Shown here: positions 20,523 through 38,336 of the stretch, piece by piece
How positions within the stretch are numbered: position 1 is the stretch's first letter
Layout: each line of letters begins with the position of its first letter
Assembly: GCA_038106575.1 (NCBI GenBank)
Contig: JAYOED010000008.1
Coordinates: forward strand, 1-58,491
Direction: 5' to 3'
DNA from: Burkholderiales bacterium
Lineage (GTDB): Bacteria > Pseudomonadota > Gammaproteobacteria > Burkholderiales > SG8-41
DNA: 58,491 nt
Notes under the pieces: model-generated
Seen by the model: the letters and a program-made list of their open reading frames with translations, nothing else
The model's database searches: none
What the model was told of the DNA's origin: nothing
Made by a program: the position numbers and the translations under genes

Positions 20523-21095
20523 GTGCTGGTCTACATCCACGGGTTCAACAGCTCGGCGCGCTCGCACAAGGCGGGCCTGCTGCGTGATTACATGACCCGC
20601 GCGGGACTGGGTAATCAATTTGCATGTCCCGAGCTATCTCACCGCCCGGCTGCGGCAATGGCGATGCTGCGAGAGCTGGTTACTGAACGTGATCCACGCC
20701 AGGTAACGCTGGTCGGTTCTTCACTGGGCGGGTATTACGCAACCTGGCTGGTCGAAAACCTGGGTGCGCGCGCCGTGCTGGTAAATCCCGCCGTACGCTC
20801 CTATGAGCTGCTGGCTGGACAGCTGGGCCCACAGAAAAATCTTTATACCGGCGCTGTGTATGAGTTCACCGAAAAACACCTCGAAGAATTGCGCGCACTG
20901 GAGGTTGACCGGATTACGCCGCAGCGCTACCAGTTGATCACGGCGACCGGGGACGAAGTGCTGGATTACCGCGCCGGTATCCGGCGGTACGCCGGCTGCG
21001 AACAAACCGTCGTTGAAGGCGGAGACCACGGATTTCGCGAATTTGAGGAGTATCTGGGCACCGTCTTCGCATTCTGGCAGTACGGGCGCGTATAA
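20523..21095 (+). CDS. YqiA/YcfP-family alpha/beta hydrolase (esterase)
   Basis: LVYIHGFNSS and nucleophile elbow GSSLGG. GTG start. Confidence 0.75.
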   Translation: MLVYIHGFNSSARSHKAGLLRDYMTRAGLGNQFACPELSHRPAAAMAMLRELVTERDPRQVTLVGSSLGGYYATWLVENLGARAVLVNPAVRSYELLAGQLGPQKNLYTGAVYEFTEKHLEELRALEVDRITPQRYQLITATGDEVLDYRAGIRRYAGCEQTVVEGGDHGFREFEEYLGTVFAFWQYGRV

Positions 21096-21156
21096 TTCAG
21101 CTGCCATTTCCTCCGCTCGCCGTCCTCTACGGCGATTCCCTGCGCGGTATTTCCCG

Positions 21157-23013: not shown

Positions 23014-23124
23014 TATACACCAACCCAACACACTATATCTAGAGTCTGCTTTAAGCATTTTCCATAATTATATGATAAATAATGTTTTTATTGATATTTT
23101 TAGGGGCTTGTCTAGAATAGTCCC

Positions 23125-24138
23125 ATGAAGCTCAAACCCGCTGCCGAGGTGATTACCCTGCCGCGCCGCGCGAAGCATCCACGGCGCGGCTCGTGGGCGG
23201 GCGCAGCGGACCGGTTGGATGCGCGGGTTGCCGAACTGGAGCGGCGCATCGAGGACTTCGACCGGCGCTATGCGCGGATGACGGTACGCGCCCGATTCAG
23301 CGCTGCAGGGGTGCTGTCACTGCTGATGCACGCCTTCGTGATTTTCGGTCTTACGTTCACCATGCCTGACTTGCGCGAGCTGAAGAACATGACTCCGCCG
23401 CTTGAGGTTGTGCTGGTCAATACCAAATCCCAGGCCAAACCGCGCAAGGCTGACGCCCTGGCGCAGCATAATCTTGATGGTGGGGGCAATACCGACGCCA
23501 GGCAGCGCGCAAAGAGTCCGCTGCCGGCGATTACTCGGGATGTCCAGACCACCGAGCTGCAGCTGGCGCAGAAACGCGTGGCCGAACTTGAACAGGAGGC
23601 GCAGCAGCTGCTGGCCATCAAGGGCAAGCCTGCGGTATCCAATGCAGCGGTCAAGTCTGAGGCGCAGCGTTCGCCGGAGCCGGCACCGCCGGCTGACACC
23701 ACGGAACTCCTGCAAAAAAGCCTGGCCATTGCCCGGCTTGAAGCGCAGATTAGCAAGGACTGGAACAGCTACCAGGAACGCCCGCGCCGCAAGTTTATCG
23801 GCGCCCGTGCGCAGGAATACCGCTTCGCACGTTACGTCGATGACTGGCGGCAGAAGATCGAGCGCTTCGGTGAACTGAATTACCCGCAGGCCGCGCGCGA
23901 CCAGCGCATCTACGGCAGCCTAGTGGCTACCGTTTCGATCAAGTCCAACGGCGTGCTGGAAAAGGTTCAGATCGATCGTTCTTCTGGACACAAGTTGCTG
24001 GATGAAGCCACGATACGTATCGTAAAGCTGGCCGCACCGTTCGCGGCATTCCCGCCCAATATCGCCCGTGATACCGACATCCTGCACATTACCCGGACCT
24101 GGACGTTCACGCGGGCGGACCAGTTCATCAGCCAGTGA
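23125..24138 (+). CDS. TonB C-terminal-domain protein
   Basis: N-terminal TM segment. The C-terminus YPQAARDQRIYGSLVATVSIKSNGVLEKVQIDRSSGHKLLDEA fits the TonB_C fold. Confidence 0.7.
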   Translation: MKLKPAAEVITLPRRAKHPRRGSWAGAADRLDARVAELERRIEDFDRRYARMTVRARFSAAGVLSLLMHAFVIFGLTFTMPDLRELKNMTPPLEVVLVNTKSQAKPRKADALAQHNLDGGGNTDARQRAKSPLPAITRDVQTTELQLAQKRVAELEQEAQQLLAIKGKPAVSNAAVKSEAQRSPEPAPPADTTELLQKSLAIARLEAQISKDWNSYQERPRRKFIGARAQEYRFARYVDDWRQKIERFGELNYPQAARDQRIYGSLVATVSIKSNGVLEKVQIDRSSGHKLLDEATIRIVKLAAPFAAFPPNIARDTDILHITRTWTFTRADQFISQ

Positions 24139-24971
24139 CCGATCGCTACGCTGTCATCGGTAACCCGGTTGAACACAGCAAATCGCCGCTGATTCATGCC
24201 GCATTCGCCAGGCAGACTGGCGAGGATATTGCCTACGACCGTCTGTTCTCGCCGCTGGATGGGTTCACGGAGACGGTTCGCCAGTTTTTTGCCGAAGACG
24301 GCAAGGGACTCAATGTCACGGTACCTTTCAAAAACGAAGCGTTCCGGATCACCCGTCCCGGTGACATCGCGATCGGCGGAGTTGCGGATGCAGAAGCGGT
24401 GAATACGATCAAGGTCGATGGCGGACAACTGGTCGGATACAACACGGATGGAGTTGGTCTGGTAACCGACCTGGAAAAAAATCTCGGTTTTCCACTCCGC
24501 GGCAAGCGCGTGTTGCTGATGGGGGCGGGCGGGGCGGCCCAGGGTGTCATGCATTCCCTGCTCGAGAAGCATGCGGACTCATTGGTGGTTGCCAACCGCA
24601 CGCTGGACAAGGCGAACTTGATGGTGAGTAGGTTTAAAAAGCTCGAACACTTTGCCGTGCATGGTATTTCAACTTCTCCGTACCGGAATCTCGATGGTGT
24701 TCCATTCGATCTGATTATTAATGCCACTTCTGCCGGTTTAAGCGGGGAAATGCCGGATTTGCCGGGAGGTGTTTTCGCCCGGAACGCGCTGGCTTACGAC
24801 ATGGTGTACGGGCGTGACACCCCGTTTCTCGAATTCGCGCGCAAATCCGGCGCCCGCGCCGTCGACGGCCTGGGCATGCTGGTCGAGCAGGCGGCAGAGT
24901 CGTTTTTTATCTGGCGTGGTGTGCGTCCGCAAACGGCGCCGGTCATCAAGCAGCTGCGCACCGCAGTCTGA
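24135..24971 (+). CDS. aroE: Shikimate dehydrogenase
   Basis: VIGNPVEHSKSPLIH and GAGGAAQGV. GTGA overlap with the upstream gene. Confidence 0.9.
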   Translation: MTDRYAVIGNPVEHSKSPLIHAAFARQTGEDIAYDRLFSPLDGFTETVRQFFAEDGKGLNVTVPFKNEAFRITRPGDIAIGGVADAEAVNTIKVDGGQLVGYNTDGVGLVTDLEKNLGFPLRGKRVLLMGAGGAAQGVMHSLLEKHADSLVVANRTLDKANLMVSRFKKLEHFAVHGISTSPYRNLDGVPFDLIINATSAGLSGEMPDLPGGVFARNALAYDMVYGRDTPFLEFARKSGARAVDGLGMLVEQAAESFFIWRGVRPQTAPVIKQLRTAV

Positions 24972-24995
24972 CTTTCAGGAAAGATTTTCCCCGAT

Positions 24996-25736
24996 ATGGC
25001 CCGTGCCAAGGCAGGCAAGGTTGCGCGTCCGACGCTGTTGCGGATGCTGCTTCGCTTGACCGGATTCATGCTGCTGCTGGCACTGATCGTGCTGACCGCA
25101 GTGCAGTTCTGGTTCCTGGTGCATGTCTGGTACTGGGTGGATCATAACCCTGAAACCACAGCATTCATGCGCGCACGGCTGGAAATTCTGCGTGAAAGCG
25201 ATTCACGGGCGCGGCTGCACCAGCGATGGGTACCGTACCAGCGGATTTCCTCGCATCTGAAGCGGGCCGTAGTGGCATCTGAAGACGCAAAATTCGTATT
25301 TCATCAGGGTTTCGACTGGGATGGCATCCGTTATGCAATGGAACGCAACCTGCGCGAAGGCGAAATCGTCGCCGGCGGATCGACCATTTCCCAGCAACTT
25401 GCGAAAAACCTTTTTTTCGGCGGGCAGCGTGCCTGGTGGCGCAAGACCCAGGAAGCGGCGGTGACCGTCATGCTCGAAACGATAATGAGCAAAAGACGGA
25501 TACTCGAGATTTATCTGAATGTGATTGAGTGGGGAGATGGGGTCTACGGAGCGGAAGCCGCGGCGCGGTATCACTACGGCACCAATGCCGCTGTTCTCAC
25601 CGATGAGCAGGCGGCGCGTTTGGCGGCCATCGTGCCCAGTCCCCGCCGTTACGGGCCGGACAGCAATACCGATTACCTCCAGCTGCGGACTCAGACCATA
25701 CTCTCGCGCATGAACAGTTCGTCTGTTCCCCGATAA
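24996..25736 (+). CDS. mtgA: Monofunctional peptidoglycan glycosyltransferase
   Basis: [30 protein letters not shown] and RKTQEA. Confidence 0.9.
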
Positions 25737-25978: not shown

Positions 25979-26428
25979 ATGATTTCACTCAATATCAATG
26001 GCCGCATGCATCAGGTCGATGTCGAACCCGATACGCCGCTGTTGTGGGCGATTCGCGAGCAGGTTGGTCTGACCGGCACCAAATACGGTTGCGGGGTCGC
26101 GCAGTGCGGATCCTGCACAGTGCACATCGATGGTGAAGCCGTGCGCTCTTGTGCGATGCCGGTTAGTGCCGCTGCCGGCAAGCGTATTACCACGATCGAA
26201 GGCCTTGCCAAGGGAAAGACGCTGCACAAGGTGCAGAAGGCCTGGGTCGATCACCAGGTACCGCAGTGCGGGTATTGCCAGTCGGGCATGGTCATGGCGG
26301 TTGCAGCATTGTTGGCGAAGAAACCGAAGCCGACCAATGCCGACATTGACACCCATGTCACCAACATCTGTCGCTGCGGCACCTTCCAGCAGGTGCGTGA
26401 AGCGATACACGCCGCAGCCAAGGCCTAG
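25979..26428 (+). CDS. [2Fe-2S] small subunit of a xanthine-oxidase-family hydroxylase (IorA/CoxS-like), copy 1
   Basis: 149 aa. [11 protein letters not shown] and CGYCQSG...CRCG cluster motifs. No signal peptide. Start at MISLNINGR. Confidence 0.9.
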
Positions 26429-26439
26429 GAGACCGCGAC

Positions 26440-28632
26440 ATGGAAACCATCAATATGAATCGCCGTTCGTTCTTGGTCACCAGCGCTGCCGCGGGGGGCG
26501 GGCTCGTCCTCGGCTTGCAGATCCCCTTCGGCATGACGACTGCGCAGGCTGCAGAAACCGTTCCCGAAATCAATGCCTGGGTCGTAATCAAGGCCGACGA
26601 TTCGGTCGTGATCCGGGTTGCGCGTTCTGAAATGGGTCAGGGCACCATCACCGGTCTGGCCCAGCTGGTCGTCGAAGAACTGGAATGCGACTGGTCAAAA
26701 GTCAGCACCGAATATCCGACGCCGGGCGAGAACCTGAAGCGCAATCGCGTCTGGCAGAGTTTCTCGACAGGAGGCAGCCGCGGCATCCGCACATCGCACG
26801 ATTATGTAAGGCGCGGTGGTGCTGCGGCACGCATGATGCTGCTGCAAGCAGCGGCCGACCAGTGGAAAGTGCCGGTCAACCAGTTGTCGGTCAGCAGGGG
26901 CGTGATTACACATGGTGCCAGCGGGCGCAAGGTGACTTACGGCAAGGTGGCTGCGGCCGCGGCGAAATTGACCCCGCCCGATGCGAAAGCCATCAAGCTC
27001 AAGGATCCGAAGAAATGGAAGGTCGCCGGAAAACCGATGAAGCGTTTTGGTACGGTCGACAAGGTCACCGGCCGCCAGGTCTATGGTGCGGACCTCAAGC
27101 TGCCGGGCATGGTCAATGCAACGATCATGGAATGCCCGGTATTTGGCGGCAAACTGAAAGCGTTTGATGCCGCCAAAGTCTCCGGCATGAAGGGCGTCAA
27201 GCAGGTCCTGCGTGTCGGTGATACCGCGGTCGCTGTTGTTGCCGATACCTGGTGGCATGCAAAAAAAGCACTGGATGGGCTGCCTGTCGATTGGGACTAT
27301 GGCGACAACGTCAAGGTATCGAGCGCCTCGATTGCCGATGTACTGAAGGCGGGTCTGGATGCACCGCAGGCTTTCGTCGGCAACAAGACGGGCGATGTCC
27401 AGTCCGCACTGAAAGGCGCGGCGAAGACCGTCGATGCGGTCTATTCATATCCGTACCAGAACCACGCACCGATGGAGCCGATGAACGCGACCGCGCGTTA
27501 CACACCGGACAAGTGCGAAGTCTGGGTGCCCACACAGGACGGCGAATCCTCGTTCGCCGCCGTGCTGGCGGCTTCCGGTCTGCCTGCGGACAAGTGCGAG
27601 GTTTACAAGATCGATCTCGGCGGCGGTTTCGGCCGGCGTGGTGCCTTCCAGGATTATGTGAAGCAGGCCGTGCTGATTGCCAAGCAGATGCCCGGGACAC
27701 CGGTCAAGTTGCTGTGGACGCGCGAGGAAGACATGCGCCAGGGCCGCTACCACCCCGTCATGCAATGCAAGCTCACCGGCAGTCTCGACTCCGCCAACAA
27801 CCTTACCGGGCTGCACATGCGCCTGTCAGGACAGTCGATTCTGGCTTCGGTGCGTCCGGCCGTCGTCGAGAAAGCCGGTGGCAAGGATCCGCTGACGTTC
27901 CAGGGTGTGGCGCAAAGCGGTGAGCATTCGATCGGCTACAGCTTTCCGAACCTGCTGATCGACCATGCCATGCGCAATCCGCATGTGCCGCCCGGTTTCT
28001 GGCGTGGCGTCAACATCAATCAGAACGCCATTTTCATCGAATGCTTCATGGATGAACTGGCGCATGCGGCAGGGCAGGATCCTCTGGAATTCCGTCGCAA
28101 GTTCATGGCGGATCATCCGCGCAATCTCGGCGTGCTGAATGCTGTTGCCAAGGGTATCGGCTGGACGAAACCCGCACCGAAGGGGCGTTATCGAGGCCTG
28201 GCGCAAATGAAAGCGTTCGACAGTTTTGTCGCGGCGGCCTGTGAGATTTCGGTGGACAGCACCGGCAACAAGGTCAAGATTCACCGCATCGTGGCAGCGA
28301 CCGACCCGGGTTATGCGGTCAATCCGGCGCAGATCGAGCGCCAGATCGCCGGATCATTTGTCTACGGCCTGTCTGCATTGTTTATGCAGGAATGCACGGT
28401 CAAGGACGGCCGCATCGAGCAGGACAACTTTCACACCTACAACTCGATGCGCATCGCGCAGATGCCCAGGGTCGAAAGCATCATCATGCCGACCGGCGGG
28501 AAGGTCTGGGGCGGCATCGGCGAGCCTACCATCTGCGTTGCTGCGCCGGCAGTGCTCAACGCCTACTTCAAGGCGACCGGCAAGCGCATCCGCACGGTCC
28601 CGTTGAAGAATCACGGTATTGAACTCGTTTGA
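26440..28632 (+). CDS. Molybdopterin-binding large subunit (IorB/CoxL-like), Tat-exported, copy 1
   Basis: 730 aa. Twin-arginine signal MNRRSFLVTSAAAGGGL. EINAWVVIKADDSVVIRVARSEMGQGT is typical of the IorB-type family. Confidence 0.9.
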   Translation: METINMNRRSFLVTSAAAGGGLVLGLQIPFGMTTAQAAETVPEINAWVVIKADDSVVIRVARSEMGQGTITGLAQLVVEELECDWSKVSTEYPTPGENLKRNRVWQSFSTGGSRGIRTSHDYVRRGGAAARMMLLQAAADQWKVPVNQLSVSRGVITHGASGRKVTYGKVAAAAAKLTPPDAKAIKLKDPKKWKVAGKPMKRFGTVDKVTGRQVYGADLKLPGMVNATIMECPVFGGKLKAFDAAKVSGMKGVKQVLRVGDTAVAVVADTWWHAKKALDGLPVDWDYGDNVKVSSASIADVLKAGLDAPQAFVGNKTGDVQSALKGAAKTVDAVYSYPYQNHAPMEPMNATARYTPDKCEVWVPTQDGESSFAAVLAASGLPADKCEVYKIDLGGGFGRRGAFQDYVKQAVLIAKQMPGTPVKLLWTREEDMRQGRYHPVMQCKLTGSLDSANNLTGLHMRLSGQSILASVRPAVVEKAGGKDPLTFQGVAQSGEHSIGYSFPNLLIDHAMRNPHVPPGFWRGVNINQNAIFIECFMDELAHAAGQDPLEFRRKFMADHPRNLGVLNAVAKGIGWTKPAPKGRYRGLAQMKAFDSFVAAACEISVDSTGNKVKIHRIVAATDPGYAVNPAQIERQIAGSFVYGLSALFMQECTVKDGRIEQDNFHTYNSMRIAQMPRVESIIMPTGGKVWGGIGEPTICVAAPAVLNAYFKATGKRIRTVPLKNHGIELV

Positions 28633-29080
28633 CCGCCGCCGCGACTTCCTGAAAACCGCTGGCCTTGCGGCCGGCGGCGCGGCGCTGGTGTTGCCGGCAC
28701 TGGCCTCACCGGAAGATATGCGCGCCGCATTGACTAAGATCACCGGCGGGGCTGACGTGCGCCGTGGACGCGTCAAGTTGCAATTGCCGCCGTTGGTGGA
28801 AAACGGCAACTCGGTCGAGTTTTCGGTGACCGTCGACAGTCCGATGACGGAAACCGACTATGTGAAGGCGATCCATGTATTCACGGAAAAAAATCCCCAG
28901 CCGTACGTGATCAACGCCTATCTGGGGCCGCGCGCCGGCCGTGCACGGATCACCAGCAGAACGCGGCTGGCTGACACTCAAACCGTGCACGCGGTTGCCG
29001 AACTGAGCAACGGCACATTCTGGACGGATTCTGTCAGCGTGGTGGTCACACTGTCAGCGTGCATCGGGGATTTGATCTGA
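28619..29080 (+). CDS. SoxY-like sulfur-carrier protein with a non-canonical C-terminal arm, copy 1
   Basis: Tat signal RRRDFLKTAGL. SoxY core LPPLVENGNSVEFSV...VHAVAELSNGTFW. Ends VVVTLSACIGDLI instead of GGCGG. The TTG start overlaps the Mo-subunit stop by 14 nt. Confidence 0.8.
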   Translation: MNSFDRRRDFLKTAGLAAGGAALVLPALASPEDMRAALTKITGGADVRRGRVKLQLPPLVENGNSVEFSVTVDSPMTETDYVKAIHVFTEKNPQPYVINAYLGPRAGRARITSRTRLADTQTVHAVAELSNGTFWTDSVSVVVTLSACIGDLI

Positions 29081-29400
29081 TGGCCGACGTGATGGTCAGC
29101 GTTCCTGCTCAGGCGCGGCGTGGCGAGATCATCGAGATCAAGGCGCTGGTGCGCCATCCGATGGAGAACGGGTTTCGCCACACGCAAACCGGTGAACGCA
29201 TTCCGCGTAACATCATCACCAATTTCGTCTGTCGCTATGACGGAGTGGAGATTTTCCGGGCGACGCTGCATCCATCGATCACCGCCAATCCAATGCTGGT
29301 GTTCTCGACGGTCGCAACTGCAAGCGGCAGGATCGAGTTTAGTTGGACCGGGGACAATGGCTTCGTGGTTACGCAGGCGGCCAGCCTCCGGGTGATTTAG
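29080..29400 (+). CDS. soxZ: SoxZ-family protein, copy 1
   Basis: IEIKALVRHPMENGFRHTQTGERIPRNII...ANPMLVFS...FSWTGDNGF. The ATG overlaps the SoxY-like TGA by 1 nt. Confidence 0.85.
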   Translation: MADVMVSVPAQARRGEIIEIKALVRHPMENGFRHTQTGERIPRNIITNFVCRYDGVEIFRATLHPSITANPMLVFSTVATASGRIEFSWTGDNGFVVTQAASLRVI

Positions 29401-29599
29401 AAAATATCATTTAAAACAGACACTTGTAAATTATCTTCTACGGCAATGTGGTTGCGCTTGGGTTACTCGCCGCCGCCGCCAGTTTTTTTCTTGACCGGTG
29501 CAGACCGCGGGAATAATCTGCCCGGCGCGCGTTGTTCATCATGCGCAGACTGCGGCGCCAGACCGCGGCGAATACCAGCGGCGTCGAGGGGAATCAGGC

Positions 29600-29618
29600 G
29601 TGCCACATTGGGTGGCAC
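29600..29618 (+). promoter_or_regulatory. Leader inverted repeat upstream of Mo-hydroxylase module 2
   Basis: GTGCCAC-attgg-GTGGCAC, then a T5 run and GAGG before the ATG. Confidence 0.5.
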
Positions 29619-29647
29619 CGGATGGTTTTTCACTGCGAGGAAAAGTC

Positions 29648-30199
29648 ATGATTCAACTCAATGTCAACGGTCGCACCTACAGGCTCGATGTCGAGCCCGA
29701 TACCCCCCTGCTGTGGGTCATTCGCGAACATGTCGGATTGACCGGCACCAAATACGGTTGTGGTGTCGCCCAGTGCGGCGCCTGCTCGGTTCATCTTAAC
29801 GGCGAGCTGATTCGTTCCTGTTCGCTGCCGGTGAGCGCAGTCAAGGCCTCGGACAAGATCGTCACCATCGAGGGGCTGTCGCGGAACAGTTCACATCCCC
29901 TGCAGAAAGCCTGGGTCGAATTTGACGTTCCCCAGTGCGGTTACTGCCAGTCGGGCCAGTTGATGGCGGCGTCTGCGCTGCTTGCGAAAAATCCGAAACC
30001 CACCGATCAGGACATCGATGACGCGATGACCAACATCTGCCGCTGTGGCACGTATCAGCGCATTCGAGCCGCGATTCATCGGGCGGCCGGCACCGGCAAA
30101 GGCGGCAAGGGCAATGGTTCGATCATACACATGGGCGCAGGTCCGACGGGCCGCGAGGTGGTGATGGCCGAAGCCGGGCAACCCGAGATGAAAGCCTGA
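29648..30199 (+). CDS. [2Fe-2S] small subunit (IorA/CoxS-like), copy 2, with a Gly/Lys-rich C-terminal tail
   Basis: 183 aa. Same Cys motifs as copy 1. The extra tail [36 protein letters not shown] is absent from copy 1. Confidence 0.9.
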
Positions 30200-30212
30200 G
30201 GAGCGCGCGATC

Positions 30213-32414
30213 ATGACGACCAAGCAATCAATGAATATTGAAAATGAATCCCGCCGCCGCTTCATCGTCGGTTCGGCTGCCGCAGGCGGCGGACTGGCGC
30301 TCGGTATTGGCTTGCCTTTTGGTTCGGTCACGGCGGCGGAAGGCCCCGGCAGCACCGAGGTCAATGCCTGGGTCGTCGTCAAACCCGACGACACTTGCGT
30401 GATCCGCATCGCCCGCGCCGAAATGGGACAGGGCACTCATACCGGACTGGCCCAGCTGGTGGCCGAAGAACTGGAGTGCGATTGGAAAAAAGTTGCGATC
30501 GAACCGATCAGCCCGGGCAGCAATCTGGCGCGCAAGCGGGTTTGGGGTCCGATGTCGACCGGCGGCAGCCGCGGCATCCGCAGTTCCCAGGATTATGTCC
30601 GTCAGGGTGGTGCGGCGGCACGCATCATGCTGTTGCAGGCGGCAGCGGATCAGTGGAACGTCACTGCGGGTGAACTGACGGTGTCCAATGGGGTCATCAC
30701 TCATGCTGCCTCGGGACGCAAGACTACCTACGGCAAGGTGGCTGACGCGGCTGCCAGGCTGCCGGTGCCGAAATTCAAATCTATCAAGCTGAAGAATCCC
30801 CGTGACTGGAAGATTGCCGGTCAGCCGCTGAAGCGGCTCGACACCGCGGACAAGGTCAATGGGGGCAAGAAATACTCGATCGACCTCAAACTTCCCGGCA
30901 TGATGTTCGCCGCGATCAAAGCCTGCCCTGTTTTCGGCGGCAAGGTGGCGGGTTACGAAGAAGGGGCGATTGCGAGCCGCCGCGGCGTGAAGGGCGTGGT
31001 GAAGGTGGGCGACTCGGCGATCGCAGTCGTTGCCGATACCTGGTGGCGCGCCAAGACCGCTCTGGATGCGCTGCCAATCACCTGGGACGAGGGCGTCAAT
31101 GCCAAGGAGACGAGCGCGACCATCGCGGTACGGTTGAAAGAAGGCCTTGATGCTGATGGCGAGGCTTATGCGGATACCGATATCGGAGACGCTTCGGGCA
31201 CCATTTCCGGCGCTGTGAAAAAGGTTGAAGCTGTCTACAGTGTGCCGTTCGTTTCACATTCCTGCATGGAGCCGATGAACTGCACGGTCAAGGTCAGCGC
31301 CAACTCCGCGGAAGTCTGGATGCCGAGCCAGAACGCCGAGGCTTCGCTGGCCGTGCTGTCCTCGGTTTCCGGCGTTCCTCTGAACCAGTGCGAGGCTTAC
31401 AACCATGGACTTGGCGGCGGATTCGGCCGTCGTGGCGGCACGCAGGACTTCGTAAGACAGGCTACAGCAATCGCCAGACAATTTCCCGACACCCCGGTGA
31501 AGCTGATCTGGAGCCGGGAAGAAGACCAGTCACACGATTTCTACCGGCCGATCGCACAGTGCAGGCTGTCGGCAGGACTGGATGAAGACGGCAACCTGCA
31601 GGGACTGCATATCCGAGTGTCCGGCCAGTCGATCAACGCCTACCTGGCTCCGCACAACATCAAGGAAGGCAAGGATCGCCGGCAATTGCAGGGGTTGTGG
31701 AAGCAGCCGCATGACGCACAGTTCGGCTACACGGTGCCGCACCTGCGCATCGAATACGTGATGCGCAACACCCATGTTCCTGTCGGACCCTGGCGTGGCG
31801 TGAATACCAACCAGAACGGCATATTCAGCGAGTGTTTCATGGATGAGGTCGCCAAGGCTGCGGGCAAGGACCCGCTGGAATTCCGCCGCGAGCTGATGAA
31901 AGATCATCCTAAGCATCTCGGCGTGCTCAATGCCGCTGCCGAGAAGGGCGACTGGGGCAAACCCCTGCCTGCCGGAAGGTTTCGCGGCATTGCCCAGTTC
32001 ATGGGCTACGCCAGTTACACTGCGGCGGTGGCAGAAGTGTCGGTCAGCGCCAAAGGCGAGATCAAGGTGCATCGAATGGTGCTGGCGACCAATTGCGGTC
32101 ACGCAGTGAATCCCGCTACGATTGCGGCACAGATCGAAGGCTCGGTAGCCTACGGGTTTGATTCGCTGCTTACTGAAATCAGCATTAAGGATGGCCGGGT
32201 GCAGGAACAGAATTTCCATACCTACCAGATCGCTCGACTGCGGCATTTGCCCAAGGTCGAATCGGTCATTGTGCCGACCTATGATTTCTGGGGAGGAGTG
32301 GGTGAGCCGACGATCTGCGTGACGGTTCCCGCAGTGCTGAACGCGGTTTTCGCGGCCACTGGCAAGCCGGTGCGTACGTTGCCGCTGAAGCACGAAGGGT
32401 TGACGCTGGTCTGA
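30213..32414 (+). CDS. Molybdopterin-binding large subunit (IorB/CoxL-like), Tat-exported, copy 2
   Basis: 733 aa. SRRRFIVGSAAAGGGL signal. Collinear with copy 1 over its whole length. Confidence 0.9.
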   Translation: MTTKQSMNIENESRRRFIVGSAAAGGGLALGIGLPFGSVTAAEGPGSTEVNAWVVVKPDDTCVIRIARAEMGQGTHTGLAQLVAEELECDWKKVAIEPISPGSNLARKRVWGPMSTGGSRGIRSSQDYVRQGGAAARIMLLQAAADQWNVTAGELTVSNGVITHAASGRKTTYGKVADAAARLPVPKFKSIKLKNPRDWKIAGQPLKRLDTADKVNGGKKYSIDLKLPGMMFAAIKACPVFGGKVAGYEEGAIASRRGVKGVVKVGDSAIAVVADTWWRAKTALDALPITWDEGVNAKETSATIAVRLKEGLDADGEAYADTDIGDASGTISGAVKKVEAVYSVPFVSHSCMEPMNCTVKVSANSAEVWMPSQNAEASLAVLSSVSGVPLNQCEAYNHGLGGGFGRRGGTQDFVRQATAIARQFPDTPVKLIWSREEDQSHDFYRPIAQCRLSAGLDEDGNLQGLHIRVSGQSINAYLAPHNIKEGKDRRQLQGLWKQPHDAQFGYTVPHLRIEYVMRNTHVPVGPWRGVNTNQNGIFSECFMDEVAKAAGKDPLEFRRELMKDHPKHLGVLNAAAEKGDWGKPLPAGRFRGIAQFMGYASYTAAVAEVSVSAKGEIKVHRMVLATNCGHAVNPATIAAQIEGSVAYGFDSLLTEISIKDGRVQEQNFHTYQIARLRHLPKVESVIVPTYDFWGGVGEPTICVTVPAVLNAVFAATGKPVRTLPLKHEGLTLV

Positions 32415-32869
32415 TGGAGATCCGCAGCTGCGTGCGCCTGTGCGCGTGGTGGATTGCGCTAGGCGCCGTGGCTGGCTGTGCAATTTCTGAAGTATCGCCC
32501 GTTGAAGTAACGGTCAGGGTCGGCGCCATTCCGGTGGCGCTATCCAAGGCGCCTGCCGACCCGGCGCGCGGCCTGAAAATCATGTCCGGGCGCGACGCAA
32601 ACTGCCTGCTGTGTCATGCAGTGCCGGAATCAGGGCTGCGCTTCATGGGCAATCTCGCGCCGCCGCTGTCGGGTATTGGCGGGCGACTGTCCGCCGCACA
32701 ACTGCGGTTGCGCGTGGTTGATATGTCGCGGCTGAATCCCGAAACCATCATGCCGCCGTATTATCGGGTCACCGGACTGCGCAACGTGGCTGACGCCTAT
32801 CGCGGAAGACCTGTTCTGACGGCGCAGGAAATCGAGGACGTGGTGGCCTATCTGCAGACGCTGAAATGA
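32414..32869 (+). CDS. soxX: Monohaem c-type cytochrome SoxX-like, with a lipobox signal
   Basis: Single CLLCH. GNLAPPLSGIG...IMPPYY matches the SoxX pattern. N-terminus ALGAVAGC is a lipobox. Sits in soxX-Y-Z-A order. Confidence 0.75.
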   Translation: MEIRSCVRLCAWWIALGAVAGCAISEVSPVEVTVRVGAIPVALSKAPADPARGLKIMSGRDANCLLCHAVPESGLRFMGNLAPPLSGIGGRLSAAQLRLRVVDMSRLNPETIMPPYYRVTGLRNVADAYRGRPVLTAQEIEDVVAYLQTLK

Positions 32870-33318
32870 TTTCCCGCAGAACATTCCTGCAGTGGATGGC
32901 CGGACTGTGTGCGCTGGACGCCGGTTCGGCGCGCGCGCAGGCCGTTGCATCAAACGATCTGCGGCCGCTAATCGCTGAGCTTACCAGTGGTGCCGCGGTA
33001 ACCGTCGGACGTATCCGTGTGGAAACGCCGCGTCTGGCCGACAACGGGCATTCGGTGCCGATGAAGCTCGTGGTGGACAGCCCGATGACGGCGACGGACT
33101 ATGTGAGCAGCATCACGCTGCTGTCACCGCGCAACCCGCGGCCGCTGATGGCGAAATTCATGCTTGGGCCGCGCGCCGGCCGCGCAGAAATCCTGACCCG
33201 CGTGCGCCTCAACGGTACCCAGGCCGTGCTGGCAATCGCGCATTTGTCCGACGGCACGTTCTGGAGCGGCAGCGCCGAGGTCGAGGTGACCGAGTCGGCC
33301 TGTCTGGATGCCGTCTAA
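32866..33318 (+). CDS. SoxY-like sulfur-carrier protein with a non-canonical C-terminal arm, copy 2
   Basis: Tat signal SRRTFLQWMAGL. Core TPRLADNGHSVPMKL...LAIAHLSDGTFW. Ends VEVTESACLDAV. ATGA overlap with soxX. Confidence 0.8.
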   Translation: MISRRTFLQWMAGLCALDAGSARAQAVASNDLRPLIAELTSGAAVTVGRIRVETPRLADNGHSVPMKLVVDSPMTATDYVSSITLLSPRNPRPLMAKFMLGPRAGRAEILTRVRLNGTQAVLAIAHLSDGTFWSGSAEVEVTESACLDAV

Positions 33319-33638
33319 TGGTGGCGCGTGTGCAGGTTCCGGCGAATGCAAGGCGCGGCGACGTCATTGCCGTGCGCATCGCAATCCAGCATCCGATGGA
33401 AACCGGTTTTCGCTATGACTTGCGCGGCAAACTGTTGCCGAAAAATGTGATCAACAGCCTGGTGTGCCGTTACAACGGCACTGAAATTTTCCGTGCGGAA
33501 ATGGGCTCGGGCATTGCCGCCAATCCCTCCCTGCAGTTTTACACGGTGGCTGCGGACAGCGGCGAATTGCATTTCGAGTGGGTGGACGACCGGGGCGTGC
33601 GCGGCGAGGAACGGGCGCGACTGGTCGTCAGCGGTTGA
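33318..33638 (+). CDS. soxZ: SoxZ-family protein, copy 2
   Basis: IAVRIAIQHPMETGFRYDLRGKLLPKNVI...ANPSLQFY...FEWVDDRGV. TAATG overlap with the upstream gene. Confidence 0.85.
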   Translation: MVARVQVPANARRGDVIAVRIAIQHPMETGFRYDLRGKLLPKNVINSLVCRYNGTEIFRAEMGSGIAANPSLQFYTVAADSGELHFEWVDDRGVRGEERARLVVSG

Positions 33639-33640
33639 AC

Positions 33641-34423
33641 ATGTCCTGCGTCCGCAAGCGCTGGTGTTGGGGCCTGCTGCTGGCGGGCTGCATGGTCGCG
33701 GCCATGGGCGCCGATAACGGACCGCGTCAGCGTTCGGGCGTCGACTACGCCAGCGAATATATTCGTACCATGCAGGCTGATGATTTTTCCAATCCCGGTA
33801 TGCTGTGGGTCACGCGCGGAGAGAAACTGTGGAATGCCAGTGATGGACGCACCGGAAAATCTTGCGCCGGCTGCCATCAGGATGCGCGATCAAGCATGAA
33901 GGGCGTGGCGACCCGCTATCCATTGCAGGACAGAGATTCGGGAAAACTGCTTAATCTCGAAGCGCGCATCAACCAGTGCCGTCAGGTTCGCCAGGGCGCG
34001 GAGCCGTATCGCTACGAGTCCGACGAACTTCTGGGGTTGACCGCTTACGTAGCGCATCAGTCGCGGGGGCTACCGCTGGCGGTCAGGATTGATGACAGCA
34101 ACCGCGAGCATTACCTCCGCGGTAGGGCCACCTATAACCGCAGGCAGGGCCAGATGAATCTCGCCTGTGTCAATTGCCATGAGCAGAATGCCGGACGCCG
34201 GCTGCTGGCGGAAACGATCAGTGAGGGTCATGGCAACGCATACCCAATCTACCGATTAGAGTGGCAGTCTACTGGATCGTTACACCGGCGCTTGCGTTCC
34301 TGCTATTTTGGCATTCGCGCGCAGTTGCCCGCGTACGGCTCCGACGAACTTCTGGAGCTGGAGCTGTTTCTGGCGCAGCGGGCACGCGGGCTTGCGGTCG
34401 AGACACCGGGCGTCCGCCGCTAG
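33641..34423 (+). CDS. soxA: Dihaem c-type cytochrome SoxA-like
   Basis: CAGCH and CVNCH, plus the conserved Cys-ligand context LHRRLRSCYFGIRA. N-terminus GLLLAGC may be a lipobox. Confidence 0.8.
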   Translation: MSCVRKRWCWGLLLAGCMVAAMGADNGPRQRSGVDYASEYIRTMQADDFSNPGMLWVTRGEKLWNASDGRTGKSCAGCHQDARSSMKGVATRYPLQDRDSGKLLNLEARINQCRQVRQGAEPYRYESDELLGLTAYVAHQSRGLPLAVRIDDSNREHYLRGRATYNRRQGQMNLACVNCHEQNAGRRLLAETISEGHGNAYPIYRLEWQSTGSLHRRLRSCYFGIRAQLPAYGSDELLELELFLAQRARGLAVETPGVRR

Positions 34424-34447
34424 TTCGGGCGGCTTTATTGGTCAGAG

Positions 34448-35425
34448 TTAGATCTGGGTGCCCAGTTCGATGACCCGGTTGTTCGGCAGGTTGAAATAAT
34501 CGACGAGCCTGCTGGCATTGCGCACCATCGCCGCGAATATGCGTTCCCGCAACAGCGCCATGTCTCCGCCGCTGAACGGAATCAGTATCTCACGGCTGAG
34601 GAAGAACGAGGTTTCCATGAATTCGAACACCAGTCCGTGCGGGCAGTAAAGATCCAGCGCCTGAGGCACATCGGGCTGGTTCTCGAATCTGAAGCGCGCC
34701 CGAATTTACTAGCAGCCATTGCCCAGCGACTTCACGGATATGCGCTCGCTGCACGAAACCCAGGGCACACCCTCGATGGTTACAGTCAGGAAGATCACAC
34801 GTTCTTACAGAAACTTATTGCGCGATAGGTTGTGCAGTAGGGTATGGGGCAAGGTATCTGGGGCCTCCATGAATACCGCTGTACCGGGGACGCAAGGCAG
34901 CGGAAATTCAGACACTGAACCAAGCGAGGTTTGCAGCGGAATGGCGGACGAATGCATGCGGTCGATGACAATCTGCCGTCCCCGCGCCTAGGTCAGCATG
35001 ATAACGAACATCGTGGTAACCAGCACCAGCGGCGGCCAGCCGCCCTGTGCCACCTTGAGTAGACTTGATGAGAAAAACGCAATATCGATCAGGATGAAAA
35101 ACCCAGCAGCGCCATGCGAAAATTTAGGTTGGGCGGGTTAATCCACCAGAGATGCGCGCCAAACCAGATGGCCAGGTTGCTACATGCCAGTAGGCTCTCA
35201 AACTGGGCGGACCTACCTGAATTGATTACACGTCGGGTCGAGCCGATCCATGCGGCAATCAGCAACGTAATTAAGGCAATGGCGACGACATGTGTAGGGA
35301 GAAAGCGTGAAAAGACTCTATGAATAACGAGCCTGCCATTCCTGCAGATGGCGATCCGTTAGCCTCCGTTCGGAAATACCAGGGACATACAGCCTGCCGG
35401 GACGTGCCTGATGAAACTAACGCAA
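34448..35425 (-). pseudogene. kup: Decayed, 5'-truncated KUP/HAK-family potassium transporter gene
   Basis: My minus-strand translation gives ...AAGFFILIDIAFFSSSLLKVAQGGWPPLVLVTTMFVIMLT*ARGRQ...[43 protein letters not shown]...LGNGC**IRARFRFENQPDVPQALDLY...METSFFLSREILIP...LPNNRVIELGTQI. In-frame stops lie at 34988-90, 34805-07, 34709-11 and 34706-08. The frame changes near 35110-35140. Homology starts only around 35425. Confidence 0.85.
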
Positions 35426-36472
35426 ACTGGCATTGATTTTTTCCAGTGTCGCCGAGCCGGGGCACAGGTCGCCGGTACCGAGCTGGTTAAGCGGGGTGTC
35501 GACGGTCTTGATGTAGTGATGCAGGTCGGCGGCGTCCGGCGACAGATAGAGTAGGCCGGTCACAATTTCGCCTGCTGCGGCGCGCTCCTGCACGTAGTTC
35601 ATGGCCTTGATACGGTCGGTGGGATCGTAGTCCGGCGACAGCTTGCGTAACCTAAGCATCGAGCCATCGTGCTGGGCGACGCTGATGACCTCGCCAGGCT
35701 CGTAATCAGCGGTAATTTCTTCCCTGGATTCGATGAAGTCAAGCCGGTTGACCGCGGCGTTATGCAGGCGCACGTATTCGTAGGACTTGGTCGAACCTTC
35801 GTGATTGTTGAAGGCGACGCAGGGTGAAATGATGTCGATGAACGAGGGTCCCGGATGCTGGATCGCGGCCTTGATCAGCGGTACCAGCTGCTTTTTGTCT
35901 CCGGAGAAGGCACGCGCGACAAAAGTAGCGCGCAGCAGCAGGGCCATGCCGACCAAGTCTACGGCCTCGTCGGGATTGAAAACGCCGCGCTTGGATTTCG
36001 AACCCTTGGTTGCCGTAGCAGAGAACTGACCCTTTGTCAGTCCGTAAACGCCATTGTTTTCGACGATGTAGACCATGTTGACGCCGCGGCGAATGCAGTG
36101 CGCAAACTGGCCAAGACCAATCGAGGCCGAGTCGCCGTCTCCGGAAACGCCCAGATAGAGCAGGTCGCGATTGGCGAGATTGGCGCCGGTCAGCACCGAG
36201 GGCATGCGGCCATGGACGCTGTTGAAACCGTGCGAATTGCCGAGGAAGTAATCCGGGGTCTTTGACGAGCAGCCGATGCCGGACAGCTTGGCGACGCGGT
36301 GGGGCTGGATATCCAGTTCCCAGCAAGCCTGGATGATGGAGGCCGAGATCGAATCGTGGCCGCATCCGGCGCACAGCGTGGAAATCTTGCCCTCGTAATC
36401 GCGGCGGGTATAGCCCGCGGCATTGGGGGCAAGTGACGGATGGTGCAGTTTGGGTTTAGCAAGATAGGTCAT
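35417..36472 (-). CDS. korB: 2-oxoacid:ferredoxin oxidoreductase beta subunit (TPP-binding)
   Basis: 351 aa. CAGCGHDSI and GVSGDGDSASIG motifs. Confidence 0.88.
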   Translation of the reverse strand: MTYLAKPKLHHPSLAPNAAGYTRRDYEGKISTLCAGCGHDSISASIIQACWELDIQPHRVAKLSGIGCSSKTPDYFLGNSHGFNSVHGRMPSVLTGANLANRDLLYLGVSGDGDSASIGLGQFAHCIRRGVNMVYIVENNGVYGLTKGQFSATATKGSKSKRGVFNPDEAVDLVGMALLLRATFVARAFSGDKKQLVPLIKAAIQHPGPSFIDIISPCVAFNNHEGSTKSYEYVRLHNAAVNRLDFIESREEITADYEPGEVISVAQHDGSMLRLRKLSPDYDPTDRIKAMNYVQERAAAGEIVTGLLYLSPDAADLHHYIKTVDTPLNQLGTGDLCPGSATLEKINASLR

Positions 36473-36484
36473 GATGACTTCAGG

Positions 36485-38320
36485 TCAGGACGCTTTTTTT
36501 AGCGGCACCACGCGGTGCGCGCCGGCATGCTGGGAAATGTGATCGACGATGAAACGAGCGGTGATCGGCGTGCCGTCGTAGTGCAGCACTGAAATGAGGC
36601 GCGAAGGATTGATCTTGCCGTCGTTGACCAGCAGGGTTTTCAGCTGGGCGTCACGGTTCTGCTCGATGACGAATACCCAGGGATGTGAACGCACGAAATC
36701 GTTGAGTTCGTCGCCAAATGGAAAACCGCGAACGCGAAGCGCGTTGACGTGTATGCCTTTTTCACCAAGCAGGTCGAGGGCCTCTTCCATTGCCGGGCTG
36801 GTCGAGCCGTAGAATATCGCGCCGAACCGTGCCGGTTTGTCCGCCGGATACAGCAGGGGTTTCGGCACTAGTGACTTCGCGGTTTCGAACTTGCGCATCA
36901 GCCGCTGCATATTGTCGACGTAGTCCGGGCCAGCTTCAGAATATTGCGCGTAGCGGTTCTTGGTGGTTCCGCGGGTGAAATAGCCGCCCTTGGTGGGGTG
37001 AGTACCGGGATAAGTGCGGAACGGGATGCCGTCGCCGTCGACATCGAGGTAGCGGCCGAAATCGGCGCCGGCCTCGAGCCGTTCGTAGGTCATCACCTTG
37101 CCGCGGTCGTATTTCTTCGTATCGTCCCAGGCAAAGGGTCGGCAGAGCCGCGTGTTCATGCCGATATCAAGGTCGGTCATCACGAATACCGGCGTCTGCA
37201 GCCGTTCGGCCAGGTCAAACGCCTGCGCGGTCAGTTCGAAGCACTCGGTGGGGTCTTCGGGAAACAGCAGCACGTGCTTGGTATCGCCGTGCGAGGCATA
37301 GGCGCAGGCCAGGATATCGGACTGCTGGGTGCGTGTCGGCATGCCGGTTGAAGGTCCGCCGCGCTGCACGTCGATCAGTACCACCGGGATTTCGGCGAAA
37401 TAGGCGAGACCGATGAATTCGCTCATCAGGGAGATGCCTGGACCGGAGGTCGCGGTAAACGACCGGGCGCCGTTCCAGCCGGCACCGATAGCGATGCCGA
37501 TTGAGGCCAGTTCGTCTTCGCCCTGGATGATCGCGTACTTGTTCTTGCCTGAATCGGCGTCGATACGGTGTTTTTTGCAATGGGCCATGAAAGCTTCGGC
37601 CAGCGAGGACGACGGCGTGATCGGATACCAGGCGCAGACCGAGGCGCCGCCGTAAACTGCACCCAGGGCCGCCGCGCTGTTGCCGTCGGTAAAGATGCGG
37701 TCGCCGACGTTGTCTGATTTCTGAATGCGGATGCCTAGCGGGCAGGGAAGATTATCCAGCGCGTAATCACGTCCCAGATGCAGAGCCTTGAGATTGGACT
37801 GCAGTAGCGCTTCCTTGCCCTTGTACTGTTCGGAAAACAGTTTTTCGATGACTTTCGGGTCGATTTCCAGCAGTGCTGAAAGCGCGCCGACATAGATAAT
37901 GTTCTTGAACAGCTGTCGCTGGCGCGGATCGCTGTAGGTGGTATTGCAGATTTCGGTCAGCGGCATCCCGATCGGGGTCACGTCTTCGCGGAATTTCGAT
38001 TTCGGCAGCGGCTTGGTGTTGTCGTAGAACAGATAGCCACCGGACTCGATTTCCTTGAGGTCGTTGTCCCAGGTCTGCGGGTTCATTGCCACCATCAGAT
38101 CGACGCCGCCGCGGCGGCCAAGATATCCTTTTTCGGTGACCCGTACTTCGTACCAAGTCGGGAGACCCTGGATATTCGAAGGGAAGATGTTGCGTGGGCT
38201 GACCGGGACACCCATGCGCAGGATGGAGCGCGCGAACAGTTCGTTGGCTGAGGCGGATCCAGAGCCGTTGACGTTGGCAAACTTGACGACAAAATCGTTA
38301 ACAGCGGTAATCGAAGTCAT
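36485..38320 (-). CDS. korA: 2-oxoacid:ferredoxin oxidoreductase alpha subunit (fused gamma/alpha)
   Basis: 611 aa. N-terminus VKFANVNGSGSASANELFARSILRMGVPVSPRNIFPSNIQGLPTWYEVRV. Sits upstream of korB. Confidence 0.88.
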   Translation of the reverse strand: MTSITAVNDFVVKFANVNGSGSASANELFARSILRMGVPVSPRNIFPSNIQGLPTWYEVRVTEKGYLGRRGGVDLMVAMNPQTWDNDLKEIESGGYLFYDNTKPLPKSKFREDVTPIGMPLTEICNTTYSDPRQRQLFKNIIYVGALSALLEIDPKVIEKLFSEQYKGKEALLQSNLKALHLGRDYALDNLPCPLGIRIQKSDNVGDRIFTDGNSAAALGAVYGGASVCAWYPITPSSSLAEAFMAHCKKHRIDADSGKNKYAIIQGEDELASIGIAIGAGWNGARSFTATSGPGISLMSEFIGLAYFAEIPVVLIDVQRGGPSTGMPTRTQQSDILACAYASHGDTKHVLLFPEDPTECFELTAQAFDLAERLQTPVFVMTDLDIGMNTRLCRPFAWDDTKKYDRGKVMTYERLEAGADFGRYLDVDGDGIPFRTYPGTHPTKGGYFTRGTTKNRYAQYSEAGPDYVDNMQRLMRKFETAKSLVPKPLLYPADKPARFGAIFYGSTSPAMEEALDLLGEKGIHVNALRVRGFPFGDELNDFVRSHPWVFVIEQNRDAQLKTLLVNDGKINPSRLISVLHYDGTPITARFIVDHISQHAGAHRVVPLKKAS

Positions 38321-38336
38321 TGCGAAGGCTGTGTGA

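Follow-up and report, generated by a model that had tools for sequence, protein, structure and literature searches.

Among described systems, one that matches the gene cluster reported here in composition is the "second sox cluster" of Starkeya novella, soxX2Y2Z2A2F2, which shares an operon with a xanthine-oxidase-family molybdenum (Mo) enzyme, Snov_1975/1976 (Kappler & Nouwens 2013, PMC3797975). That report noted that SoxB and SoxCD are missing from the second cluster, did not detect its SoxAX and SoxYZ in proteomes, found its transcripts to be very scarce on thiosulfate, methanol, and glucose, and left the function open, suggesting that the cluster might be without functional significance in an organism that also has a complete canonical sox cluster (PMC3797975). 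Here, we analyzed a 58,491-nucleotide stretch of DNA from a Burkholderiales bacterium (GenBank assembly GCA_038106575.1, contig JAYOED010000008.1, positions 1 to 58,491), hereafter the window, in which a ten-gene cluster at positions 25979-34423 couples xanthine-oxidase-family Mo hydroxylases to SoxYZ-like carriers and SoxXA cytochromes in two successive modules. This cluster is a real, widely conserved gene set, and its conservation, read together with its sequences, makes it plausible that the Mo hydroxylase acts on a substrate tethered to the carrier.

In our searches of the full-text literature, the 2013 report was the sole description of such a cluster, and we found no characterized system of this composition; the genome note on S. 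novella makes no mention of sox. Other studies have touched on its parts. In Bradyrhizobium diazoefficiens, which also has a canonical cluster, a second soxY (soxY2), possibly of the present cluster type, is reported to be dispensable for thiosulfate oxidation. A 2024 survey of SoxY diversity dropped all sequences without a GGC motif, and therefore excluded the carrier family that NCBIfam curates as TIGR04487, "SoxY-related AACIE arm protein," to which the carriers of the window are closest. A 2026 evolutionary study counted out-of-cluster sox paralogs and did not discuss this Mo enzyme. An original prediction, made from the DNA letters of the window, had presented the cluster as a candidate novel system. 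This stands in so far as neither the literature nor PDB searches returned a characterized counterpart, but clusters of this type had been noticed before, with a description in S. novella in 2013 (PMC3797975) and a curated family, TIGR04487, for the carrier. It is thus already seen and named, but not characterized.

A conserved pairing of Mo hydroxylase and SoxYZ-like carrier genes

Open reading frame (ORF) calls together with Pfam and NCBIfam searches resolve the cluster into ten genes, all on the + strand. A first module encodes a [2Fe-2S] subunit, a Mo subunit with a twin-arginine translocation (Tat) signal, a SoxY-like protein, and SoxZ, while a second one encodes a [2Fe-2S] subunit, a Tat Mo subunit, SoxX, a SoxY-like protein, SoxZ, and SoxA. 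The original prediction had proposed this gene content and order, and it was right for all ten genes, which lie at the coordinates it gave; the Sox and IorAB-type homologies that it had assigned were likewise upheld by the profile searches. The features are as follows, with NCBIfam scores in bits.

25979..26428, + strand: FeS1, small subunit with two [2Fe-2S] clusters; PF01799 (2.6e-27) and PF00111 (Fer2 and Fer2_2 domains)
26440..28632, + strand: Mo1, molybdopterin subunit of the IorB/membrane-aldehyde-dehydrogenase type; PF02738 and PF20256 (MoCoBD_1/2); Tat signal
28619..29080, + strand: Y1, SoxY-like protein with Tat signal RRRDFLK; PF13501 (8.6e-29); TIGR04487 192 (cutoff 172)
29080..29400, + strand: Z1, SoxZ partner of Y1; PF08770 (7.4e-25); TIGR04490 75.7 (cutoff 76)
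29401..29647: spacer between the modules, ~247 nucleotides (nt), AT-rich at its 5' end
29648..30199, + strand: FeS2, second [2Fe-2S] small subunit; PF01799 (3.2e-29)
30213..32414, + strand: Mo2, second Tat-exported Mo subunit, of a distinct clade; PF02738 and PF20256
32414..32869, + strand: SoxX, monoheme cytochrome c (CLLCH); TIGR04485 75.9 (cutoff 61); PDB 1h31_B (1.1e-21)
32866..33318, + strand: Y2, SoxY-like protein with Tat signal SRRTFLQ; PF13501 (2.1e-28); TIGR04487 144 (below cutoff)
33318..33638, + strand: Z2, SoxZ partner of Y2; PF08770 (4e-27); TIGR04490 83.5 (cutoff 76)
33641..34423, + strand: SoxA, diheme cytochrome c (CAGCH, CVNCH); TIGR04484 227 (cutoff 110)

Two censuses, one starting from the enzyme and the other from the carrier, establish how constant this association is. 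A Mo1-based scan with one genome per species returned 315 relatives, and the best 80 of these 315 loci were mapped by tblastn. Counting as informative only those with enough downstream sequence, a SoxY-like gene lies no more than 6 kb downstream of the Mo gene in 73 of 74 loci. Starting from the carrier, we searched species-representative genomes with an alignment of the SoxY-like family and gathered at least 592 relatives; a FeS-Mo pair was found upstream in 58 of the 60 loci that were informative in having at least 4.5 kb of upstream sequence. SoxXA is encoded in every informative locus. A scan with a single SoxY sequence detected the FeS-Mo pair in all of the arm-type loci having enough upstream flank (7/7); none of the canonical SoxY loci retrieved in the same scan has the Mo enzyme, and at least seven of these could be read to their GGC/GGCGG end. 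On the strength of the two censuses, chance adjacency of the two gene sets was rejected, and the coupling of Mo hydroxylase and SoxY-like genes, for which the original prediction had named a co-occurrence census as the check, is confirmed.

The gene set is found in Burkholderiales-type metagenome-assembled genomes (MAGs), in Alphaproteobacteria (including Bradyrhizobium, Pseudolabrys, Rhodoplanes, Methylocella, Methylobacterium, and Neorhizobium), and in Rokubacteria/Methylomirabilota. The usual order is FeS-Mo followed by SoxX, SoxY-like, SoxZ, and SoxA, with Y-Z-X-A in a few Burkholderiales, and SoxX is immediately 3' of the Mo gene in most betaproteobacterial loci. In Alphaproteobacteria and Rokubacteria, genes for a small cytochrome c and the flavoprotein of flavocytochrome c sulfide dehydrogenase (FCSD) are inserted between Mo and SoxX, a layout confirmed by the PGAP annotation of two plasmid copies (L179 and L183), in which the carrier orthologs are named "SoxY-related AACIE arm protein." Domain scans of the substantial ORFs across the whole window found neither SoxB nor SoxCD, whose absence the original prediction had pointed out, and the only molybdoenzymes detected are those of the xanthine oxidase family; no conserved neighbor the size of SoxB was found in the ~80 related loci whose genes were clustered. 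The carriers share a dedicated C-terminal arm, VT[L/E][S/A/G]AC[L/I/V/T][E/D] followed by one to four residues, which is present in 62/62 carriers from the Mo-centered loci and the window, and in 77/77 from the SoxY-centered loci. Selection has conserved the cluster across at least 592 species representatives, and its Mo pair is seldom missing.

The two modules of the window consist of old paralogs, with 68% identity between the FeS paralogs, 57% between the Mo subunits, 47% between the Y proteins, and 48% between the Z proteins. The layout FeS-Mo1-Y1-Z1 then FeS-Mo2-X-Y2-Z2-A recurs in three other loci (L005, L065, and L114) and in part in L002/L082, and L012 has two complete modules. Because of these identities and this recurrence, a recent tandem duplication was rejected. 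The two tandem modules of the original prediction are therefore both present, but the second is no recent copy of the first. In the window, as in L005, L065, and L114, enzyme and carrier were duplicated jointly while SoxXA remained single, and the TESACLD arm of Y2 occurs solely beside Mo2-type enzymes. These two observations argue that enzyme and carrier are inherited and duplicated as a pair, and enzyme-carrier specificity would predict just such joint inheritance, with one SoxXA for both. The opposite pattern, three tandem FeS-Mo pairs with a single carrier set, is found in some Alphaproteobacteria. In these loci (L059, L068, L070, and L081, ~6.5-18.8 kb per locus), the three pairs are followed by cytochrome c, FCSD, SoxX, SoxY-like, SoxZ, and SoxA genes, and the pair closest to the Sox genes comes from a separate, deep-branching Mo clade with ~50% identity to Mo1.

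Proteins and surroundings of the cluster in the window

The Mo enzymes show the hallmarks of the xanthine oxidase family, namely molybdopterin domains, a catalytic Glu, and a small subunit with two [2Fe-2S] clusters, with no gene for a flavin adenine dinucleotide (FAD)-binding subunit in the cluster. In FeS1, eight Cys form two [2Fe-2S] patterns (Cys38/43/46/58 and Cys97/100/131/133), and the same eight are conserved in FeS2, the C terminus of which (~30095-30199) also carries a Gly/Lys-rich extension of ~35 residues that is absent from FeS1. The Mo subunits and the SoxY-like carriers have Tat signals, while the FeS subunits and SoxZ have no signal peptide; FeS1 is presumably exported bound to Mo1. 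In Mo1, the motifs TQ366, GGGFGRR394-400, WR522G, and GGIGE695P are invariant among 153 aligned homologs. We take Q366, GGGFGRR, R522, and E695 to be the Mo=O glutamine, the Mo cofactor loop, the active-site loop, and the catalytic glutamate, respectively, corresponding to Gln767, Arg880, and Glu1261 of bovine xanthine oxidase. The catalytic Glu698 of Mo2 lies in a GGVGE698PT motif, the counterpart of GGIGE695PT in Mo1. The best PDB match of Mo1, over its full length, is 8gy3_C (3.7e-68), the large subunit of a periplasmic membrane-bound aldehyde dehydrogenase, and the PDB sequence search gave no solved structure closer than 8gy3. No NCBIfam equivalog cutoff is reached by the Mo subunits (best score of 178 bits versus a cutoff of 780), and an exact-sequence look-up of Mo1 returned a single 4-kb contig with no added context. 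Mo2 groups with the Mo2-type enzymes of L005, L012, L065, and L069. Three residues of Mo1, K275, D405, and H515, hold in every deep Sox-linked clade, including those at 50-57% identity, and are changed only in a clade of Rhizobiaceae enzymes that have no adjacent Sox genes; D405 and H515 adjoin active-site motifs. These columns lend modest support to a Sox-specific surface or pocket.

The carrier Cys of Y1 is Cys148 (codon 29060-29062), within the arm ...VTLSACIGDLI, and it aligns onto the carrier Cys of solved SoxY structures; that of Y2 is Cys146 (codon 33301-33303), within ...VTESACLDAV. Neither Y protein ends in the GGCGG swinging arm. With the model for genuine SoxY, TIGR04488, the two proteins score 100 and 91 bits (91 for Y2), both under the cutoff of 125. 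Y1 is above the curated cutoff of TIGR04487, and this is still the best family for Y2 despite its sub-cutoff score. SoxXA is close to canonical in sequence. SoxA matches the Rhodovulum and Paracoccus proteins (1h31_A, 3e-47; 2c1d_A, 1.1e-46) and keeps the Cys heme ligand (RLRSCY), which is aligned with theirs. With one heme in SoxX and two in SoxA, these are the only cytochromes of the cluster, in which there is no multiheme cytochrome c subunit. The N terminus of SoxX (window 32414-32500) has a lipobox-like VAGC, and VAGC, LAGC, VVGC, VTGC, or FAAC is found in the sub-lineage of the window, which includes L004, L005, L006, and L008; this suggests that SoxX is lipid-anchored there, while the SoxX of most other homologs has an ordinary Sec signal.

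Most junctions within the cluster had been described as overlapping in the original prediction, which is roughly right. Five of them overlap (Mo1/Y1 by 14 nt with a TTG start, Y1/Z1 in TGATG, Mo2/SoxX in TGATG, SoxX/Y2 in ATGA, and Y2/Z2 in TAATG), whereas three have spacers of 2-13 nt (FeS1/Mo1, FeS2/Mo2, and Z2/SoxA) and the gap of ~247 nt separates the modules. This intermodule spacer may contain an internal promoter; a consensus promoter scan, whose yield was not above shuffled controls, placed no + strand site in it. Searches against Rfam revealed no riboswitch or other RNA family around the cluster. At the 3' end, a terminator-like GC hairpin with a T-rich tail (34416..34433, + strand) lies on the soxA stop codon; it matches the consensus, but sites of this kind were in total no more frequent than in shuffled controls.

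The genes on both sides are housekeeping genes, with those for an RNB-domain exoribonuclease, TonB, aroE, and mtgA upstream (window 21013-25736), and convergent 2-oxoacid:ferredoxin oxidoreductase genes and an Fe-S flavoprotein gene downstream (window 35417-40223). The cluster occupies the same chromosomal position in related Burkholderiales MAGs (L002-L004, L006, L009, L025, and L052), which indicates that it is vertically inherited in this lineage and is not a recent island. Two further observations concern the rest of the window. The ~1 kb 3' of soxA (window 34424-35416) has no convincing ORF, the longest being 90 residues with no Pfam match. Close to the start of the window, on the - strand (290-365), there is a match to the SAM_alpha (SAM-II) riboswitch (39.5 bits, gathering threshold 36, E 1.9e-5); the gene it controls would lie past the window start, and the window otherwise looks betaproteobacterial (Burkholderiales-like).

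Proposed mechanism and competing explanations

The inference of the original prediction that the Mo hydroxylase works on a substrate tethered to the carrier is plausible, and is favored by the constant gene order, by the joint duplication of enzyme and carrier, and by an arm motif peculiar to these carriers; the 14-nt overlap of the Mo1 and Y1 genes points the same way. The genes specify a periplasmic module made up of SoxXA for loading, a carrier of its own, and one redox enzyme that might process the adduct, whereas both processing enzymes of the canonical pathway are consistently missing. We propose that the cluster may encode a self-contained periplasmic derivative of Sox, in which SoxXA would load the variant carrier and the Mo hydroxylase would oxidize the adduct with water, replacing SoxB and SoxCD, a scheme to which we give a little less than even chances. 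By oxidative coupling, SoxXA would attach reduced inorganic sulfur to the carrier Cys, releasing two electrons. The loaded arm would then enter the funnel of the cognate Mo subunit, where Mo(VI)-OH, activated by Glu695 (Glu698 in Mo2), would oxygenate the terminal sulfur two electrons at a time, with water as the source of the oxygen. From Mo, electrons would run through both [2Fe-2S] clusters and on to a cytochrome of the c type, SoxX/SoxA in the window and the small flavocytochrome-type cytochrome in the alphaproteobacterial versions. After two or three such steps, the oxidized sulfur would depart as sulfite or sulfate without SoxB, which would regenerate the carrier. The two modules of the window would then represent two enzyme-carrier specificities, both loaded by one SoxXA.

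As input, sulfide or polysulfide-derived sulfane sulfur seems more likely than thiosulfate, because of the FCSD genes in the alphaproteobacterial and Rokubacteria versions, an insertion that ties the module to sulfide, and because of the lack of a thiosulfate response in S. novella. The scant expression of the S. novella cluster on thiosulfate fits a substrate other than thiosulfate, and so would the dispensability of the B. diazoefficiens soxY2 for thiosulfate oxidation, if that gene is of this cluster type. At slightly lower odds than the scheme itself, the Mo subunit could be the first xanthine-oxidase-family enzyme to act on protein-tethered sulfur, forming with SoxXA and the AACIE-arm SoxYZ a SoxB/SoxCD- and oxygen-independent route from sulfide/sulfane to sulfite/sulfate. 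Hundreds of species from soil, groundwater, and freshwater, belonging to Burkholderiales, Hyphomicrobiales, and Rokubacteria/Methylomirabilota, would share this route.

Several findings weigh against carrier-bound sulfur as the substrate, the main caveat being a group of Rhizobiaceae homologs that are 62-64% identical to Mo1 and have no adjacent Sox genes. These homologs, on Sinorhizobium and Rhizobium megaplasmids (L178, L180, L181, and L182), are encoded after genes for a cytochrome c2-like protein and a [2Fe-2S] subunit, with XdhC close to the enzyme in S. fredii. The sole SoxY of S. meliloti pSymA is canonical and lies more than 400 kb away from the Mo homolog. The enzyme therefore appears able to work without an adjacent carrier. 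A neighbor-joining tree places the Sox-less enzymes inside the Sox-linked diversity, and they differ from the Sox-linked ones at only six otherwise conserved columns, which include K275, D405, and H515. The pairing also has exceptions, in that one Rokubacteria locus (L024) is without Sox genes over a distance of 10 kb and the Mo pair is absent from two SoxXYZA loci, and no fusion of SoxY and Mo domains was found among the top 120 SoxY homologs. The nearest solved relative of Mo1 is an aldehyde dehydrogenase. Known members of the xanthine oxidase family catalyze C-H hydroxylation or CO oxidation, and we know of no precedent for sulfur oxidation by one of them. Each step of the mechanism is, moreover, deduced from sequence and synteny.

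Some of these findings would be accommodated if the Mo enzyme oxidized a free small molecule, such as an aldehyde, an N-heterocycle, or an inorganic compound like sulfite. The link to Sox would then reflect shared electron transfer, with SoxX/SoxA in the slot that cytochrome c holds in the usual IorAB triad, or regulation, and SoxYZ would not be its carrier. The relationship to 8gy3_C, a periplasmic membrane-bound aldehyde dehydrogenase, points this way, as do the Rhizobiaceae homologs, which form a cytochrome c-FeS-Mo unit with no Sox neighbors and with six columns changed, and the location of SoxX directly after Mo in most betaproteobacterial loci, that is, in the position of a cytochrome subunit. 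The Rhizobiaceae cytochrome, however, is unrelated both to SoxX and to the small cytochrome of the cluster, and this explanation does not account for 1) a dedicated variant of the SoxY arm found beside this enzyme only, 2) the duplication of YZ, rather than XA, with the enzyme, or 3) a linkage of 73/74 and 58/60 across phyla. We regard it as rather unlikely. Less probable, in our judgment, is a tethered substrate that is organic or a C1-sulfur compound, either a methanethiol-like thiol bound by SoxXA as a mixed disulfide or an aldehyde held as a thiohemiacetal, on which the Mo enzyme would perform its usual carbon hydroxylation. Xanthine-oxidase-family chemistry is carbon-centered, in keeping with the aldehyde dehydrogenase as nearest structure, but SoxXA and FCSD indicate inorganic sulfur, the thiohemiacetal route needs no SoxXA, yet SoxXA is encoded in every informative locus, and hydroxylation of an sp3 methyl group is, to our knowledge, not known for this family. 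In favor of such a substrate, the hosts include many relatives of methylotrophs and generalists of the soil (Methylobacterium, Methylocella, Starkeya, and Methylomirabilota), and a separate SoxYZ-like carrier family, TIGR04557, is linked to periplasmic quinoprotein alcohol dehydrogenases. The same explanation gains from the finding that thiosulfate does not induce the cluster in S. novella (PMC3797975).

That same finding counts against a further possibility, namely that the Sox proteins of the cluster are spare isoenzymes feeding canonical Sox, with a main cluster providing SoxB and SoxCD in trans and the Mo enzyme unrelated or accessory. In its favor, SoxA and SoxX score above NCBIfam equivalog cutoffs, S. 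novella does hold a complete canonical cluster, B. diazoefficiens likewise holds one in addition to its soxY2, which is possibly of this type, and the 2013 paper itself doubts the functional significance of the second one (PMC3797975). Against it stand the selection on the cluster in at least 592 species representatives, in which the Mo pair is nearly always attached, the reported dispensability of soxY2 for thiosulfate oxidation, and the carrier arm itself. SoxB and SoxCD recognize the Gly-rich C-terminal arm, as known from SoxB-SoxYZ structures, and the arm of the variant carriers is not GGCGG, the presumed recognition element. We consider spare isoenzymes very unlikely, and return to oxidation of carrier-bound sulfur by the Mo hydroxylase in what follows.

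Implications and relation to known systems

The cluster probably encodes an unexplored periplasmic sulfur-oxidation route in soil and freshwater bacteria. Genomes and metagenomes are routinely screened for thiosulfate oxidation by means of sox marker genes, and the present variant is annotated as "SoxX/SoxA/SoxZ/sulfur-oxidizing protein SoxY." Since it receives a Sox annotation despite having no SoxB/SoxCD and a different arm, it is probably miscounted. The carrier's relatives number at least 592 in species-representative genomes and run to thousands in metagenomes, the latter set including canonical SoxY too. If the Mo hydroxylase does act on carrier-bound sulfur, 1) xanthine-oxidase-family chemistry would be broadened to include sulfur as well as substrates held on a protein, 2) the oxidative sulfur cycle would gain a new branch in soil, and 3) the purpose of "second sox clusters," a question open since 2013, would be answered. 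Direct testing is feasible since there are cultured hosts, some of them in genetically tractable genera: Neorhizobium galegae, Methylobacterium sp. NMS14P, Bradyrhizobium sp. STM 3843, Methylocella sp. CPCC 101449, and S. novella.

Four known systems offer points of comparison. With canonical Sox, as in Paracoccus pantotrophus, the cluster shares a periplasmic location, SoxXA of canonical type, a SoxYZ with a carrier Cys and a Tat signal, and a molybdoenzyme in the cluster, to which the alphaproteobacterial versions add a SoxEF-like flavocytochrome c. It differs in having no SoxB/SoxCD, in a molybdoenzyme of the xanthine oxidase rather than the sulfite oxidase family, and in a carrier arm of [S/A/G]ACxE/D plus one to four residues instead of a C-terminal GGCGG. 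With enzymes of the IorAB/membrane aldehyde dehydrogenase type (8gy3, isoquinoline 1-oxidoreductase, and NicAB), it has in common a small subunit with two [2Fe-2S] clusters, a Tat-exported Mo subunit, a conserved catalytic Glu, and no FAD; unlike them, it has no multiheme cytochrome c subunit, and its genes are obligatorily coupled to those for SoxXA and a variant SoxYZ. The quinoprotein-dehydrogenase-associated carriers of TIGR04557 provide another case in which a SoxYZ-derived carrier is coupled to a periplasmic non-Sox dehydrogenase, although there Y and Z are fused, the partner is a pyrroloquinoline quinone enzyme, and there is no SoxXA; the proteins of the window score 53-62 bits against a cutoff of 140. 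The fourth is the second cluster of S. novella, which we likened to that of the window by the composition described in the paper. Genes for the SoxF flavocytochrome are missing from the window, where there are two enzyme-carrier modules. Both clusters combine SoxAX and SoxYZ, a duplicate set in S. novella, with a two-gene xanthine-oxidase-family enzyme and lack SoxB/SoxCD, and the composition reported for S. novella is that of the alphaproteobacterial layout found in L023, L045, L086, L179, and L183.

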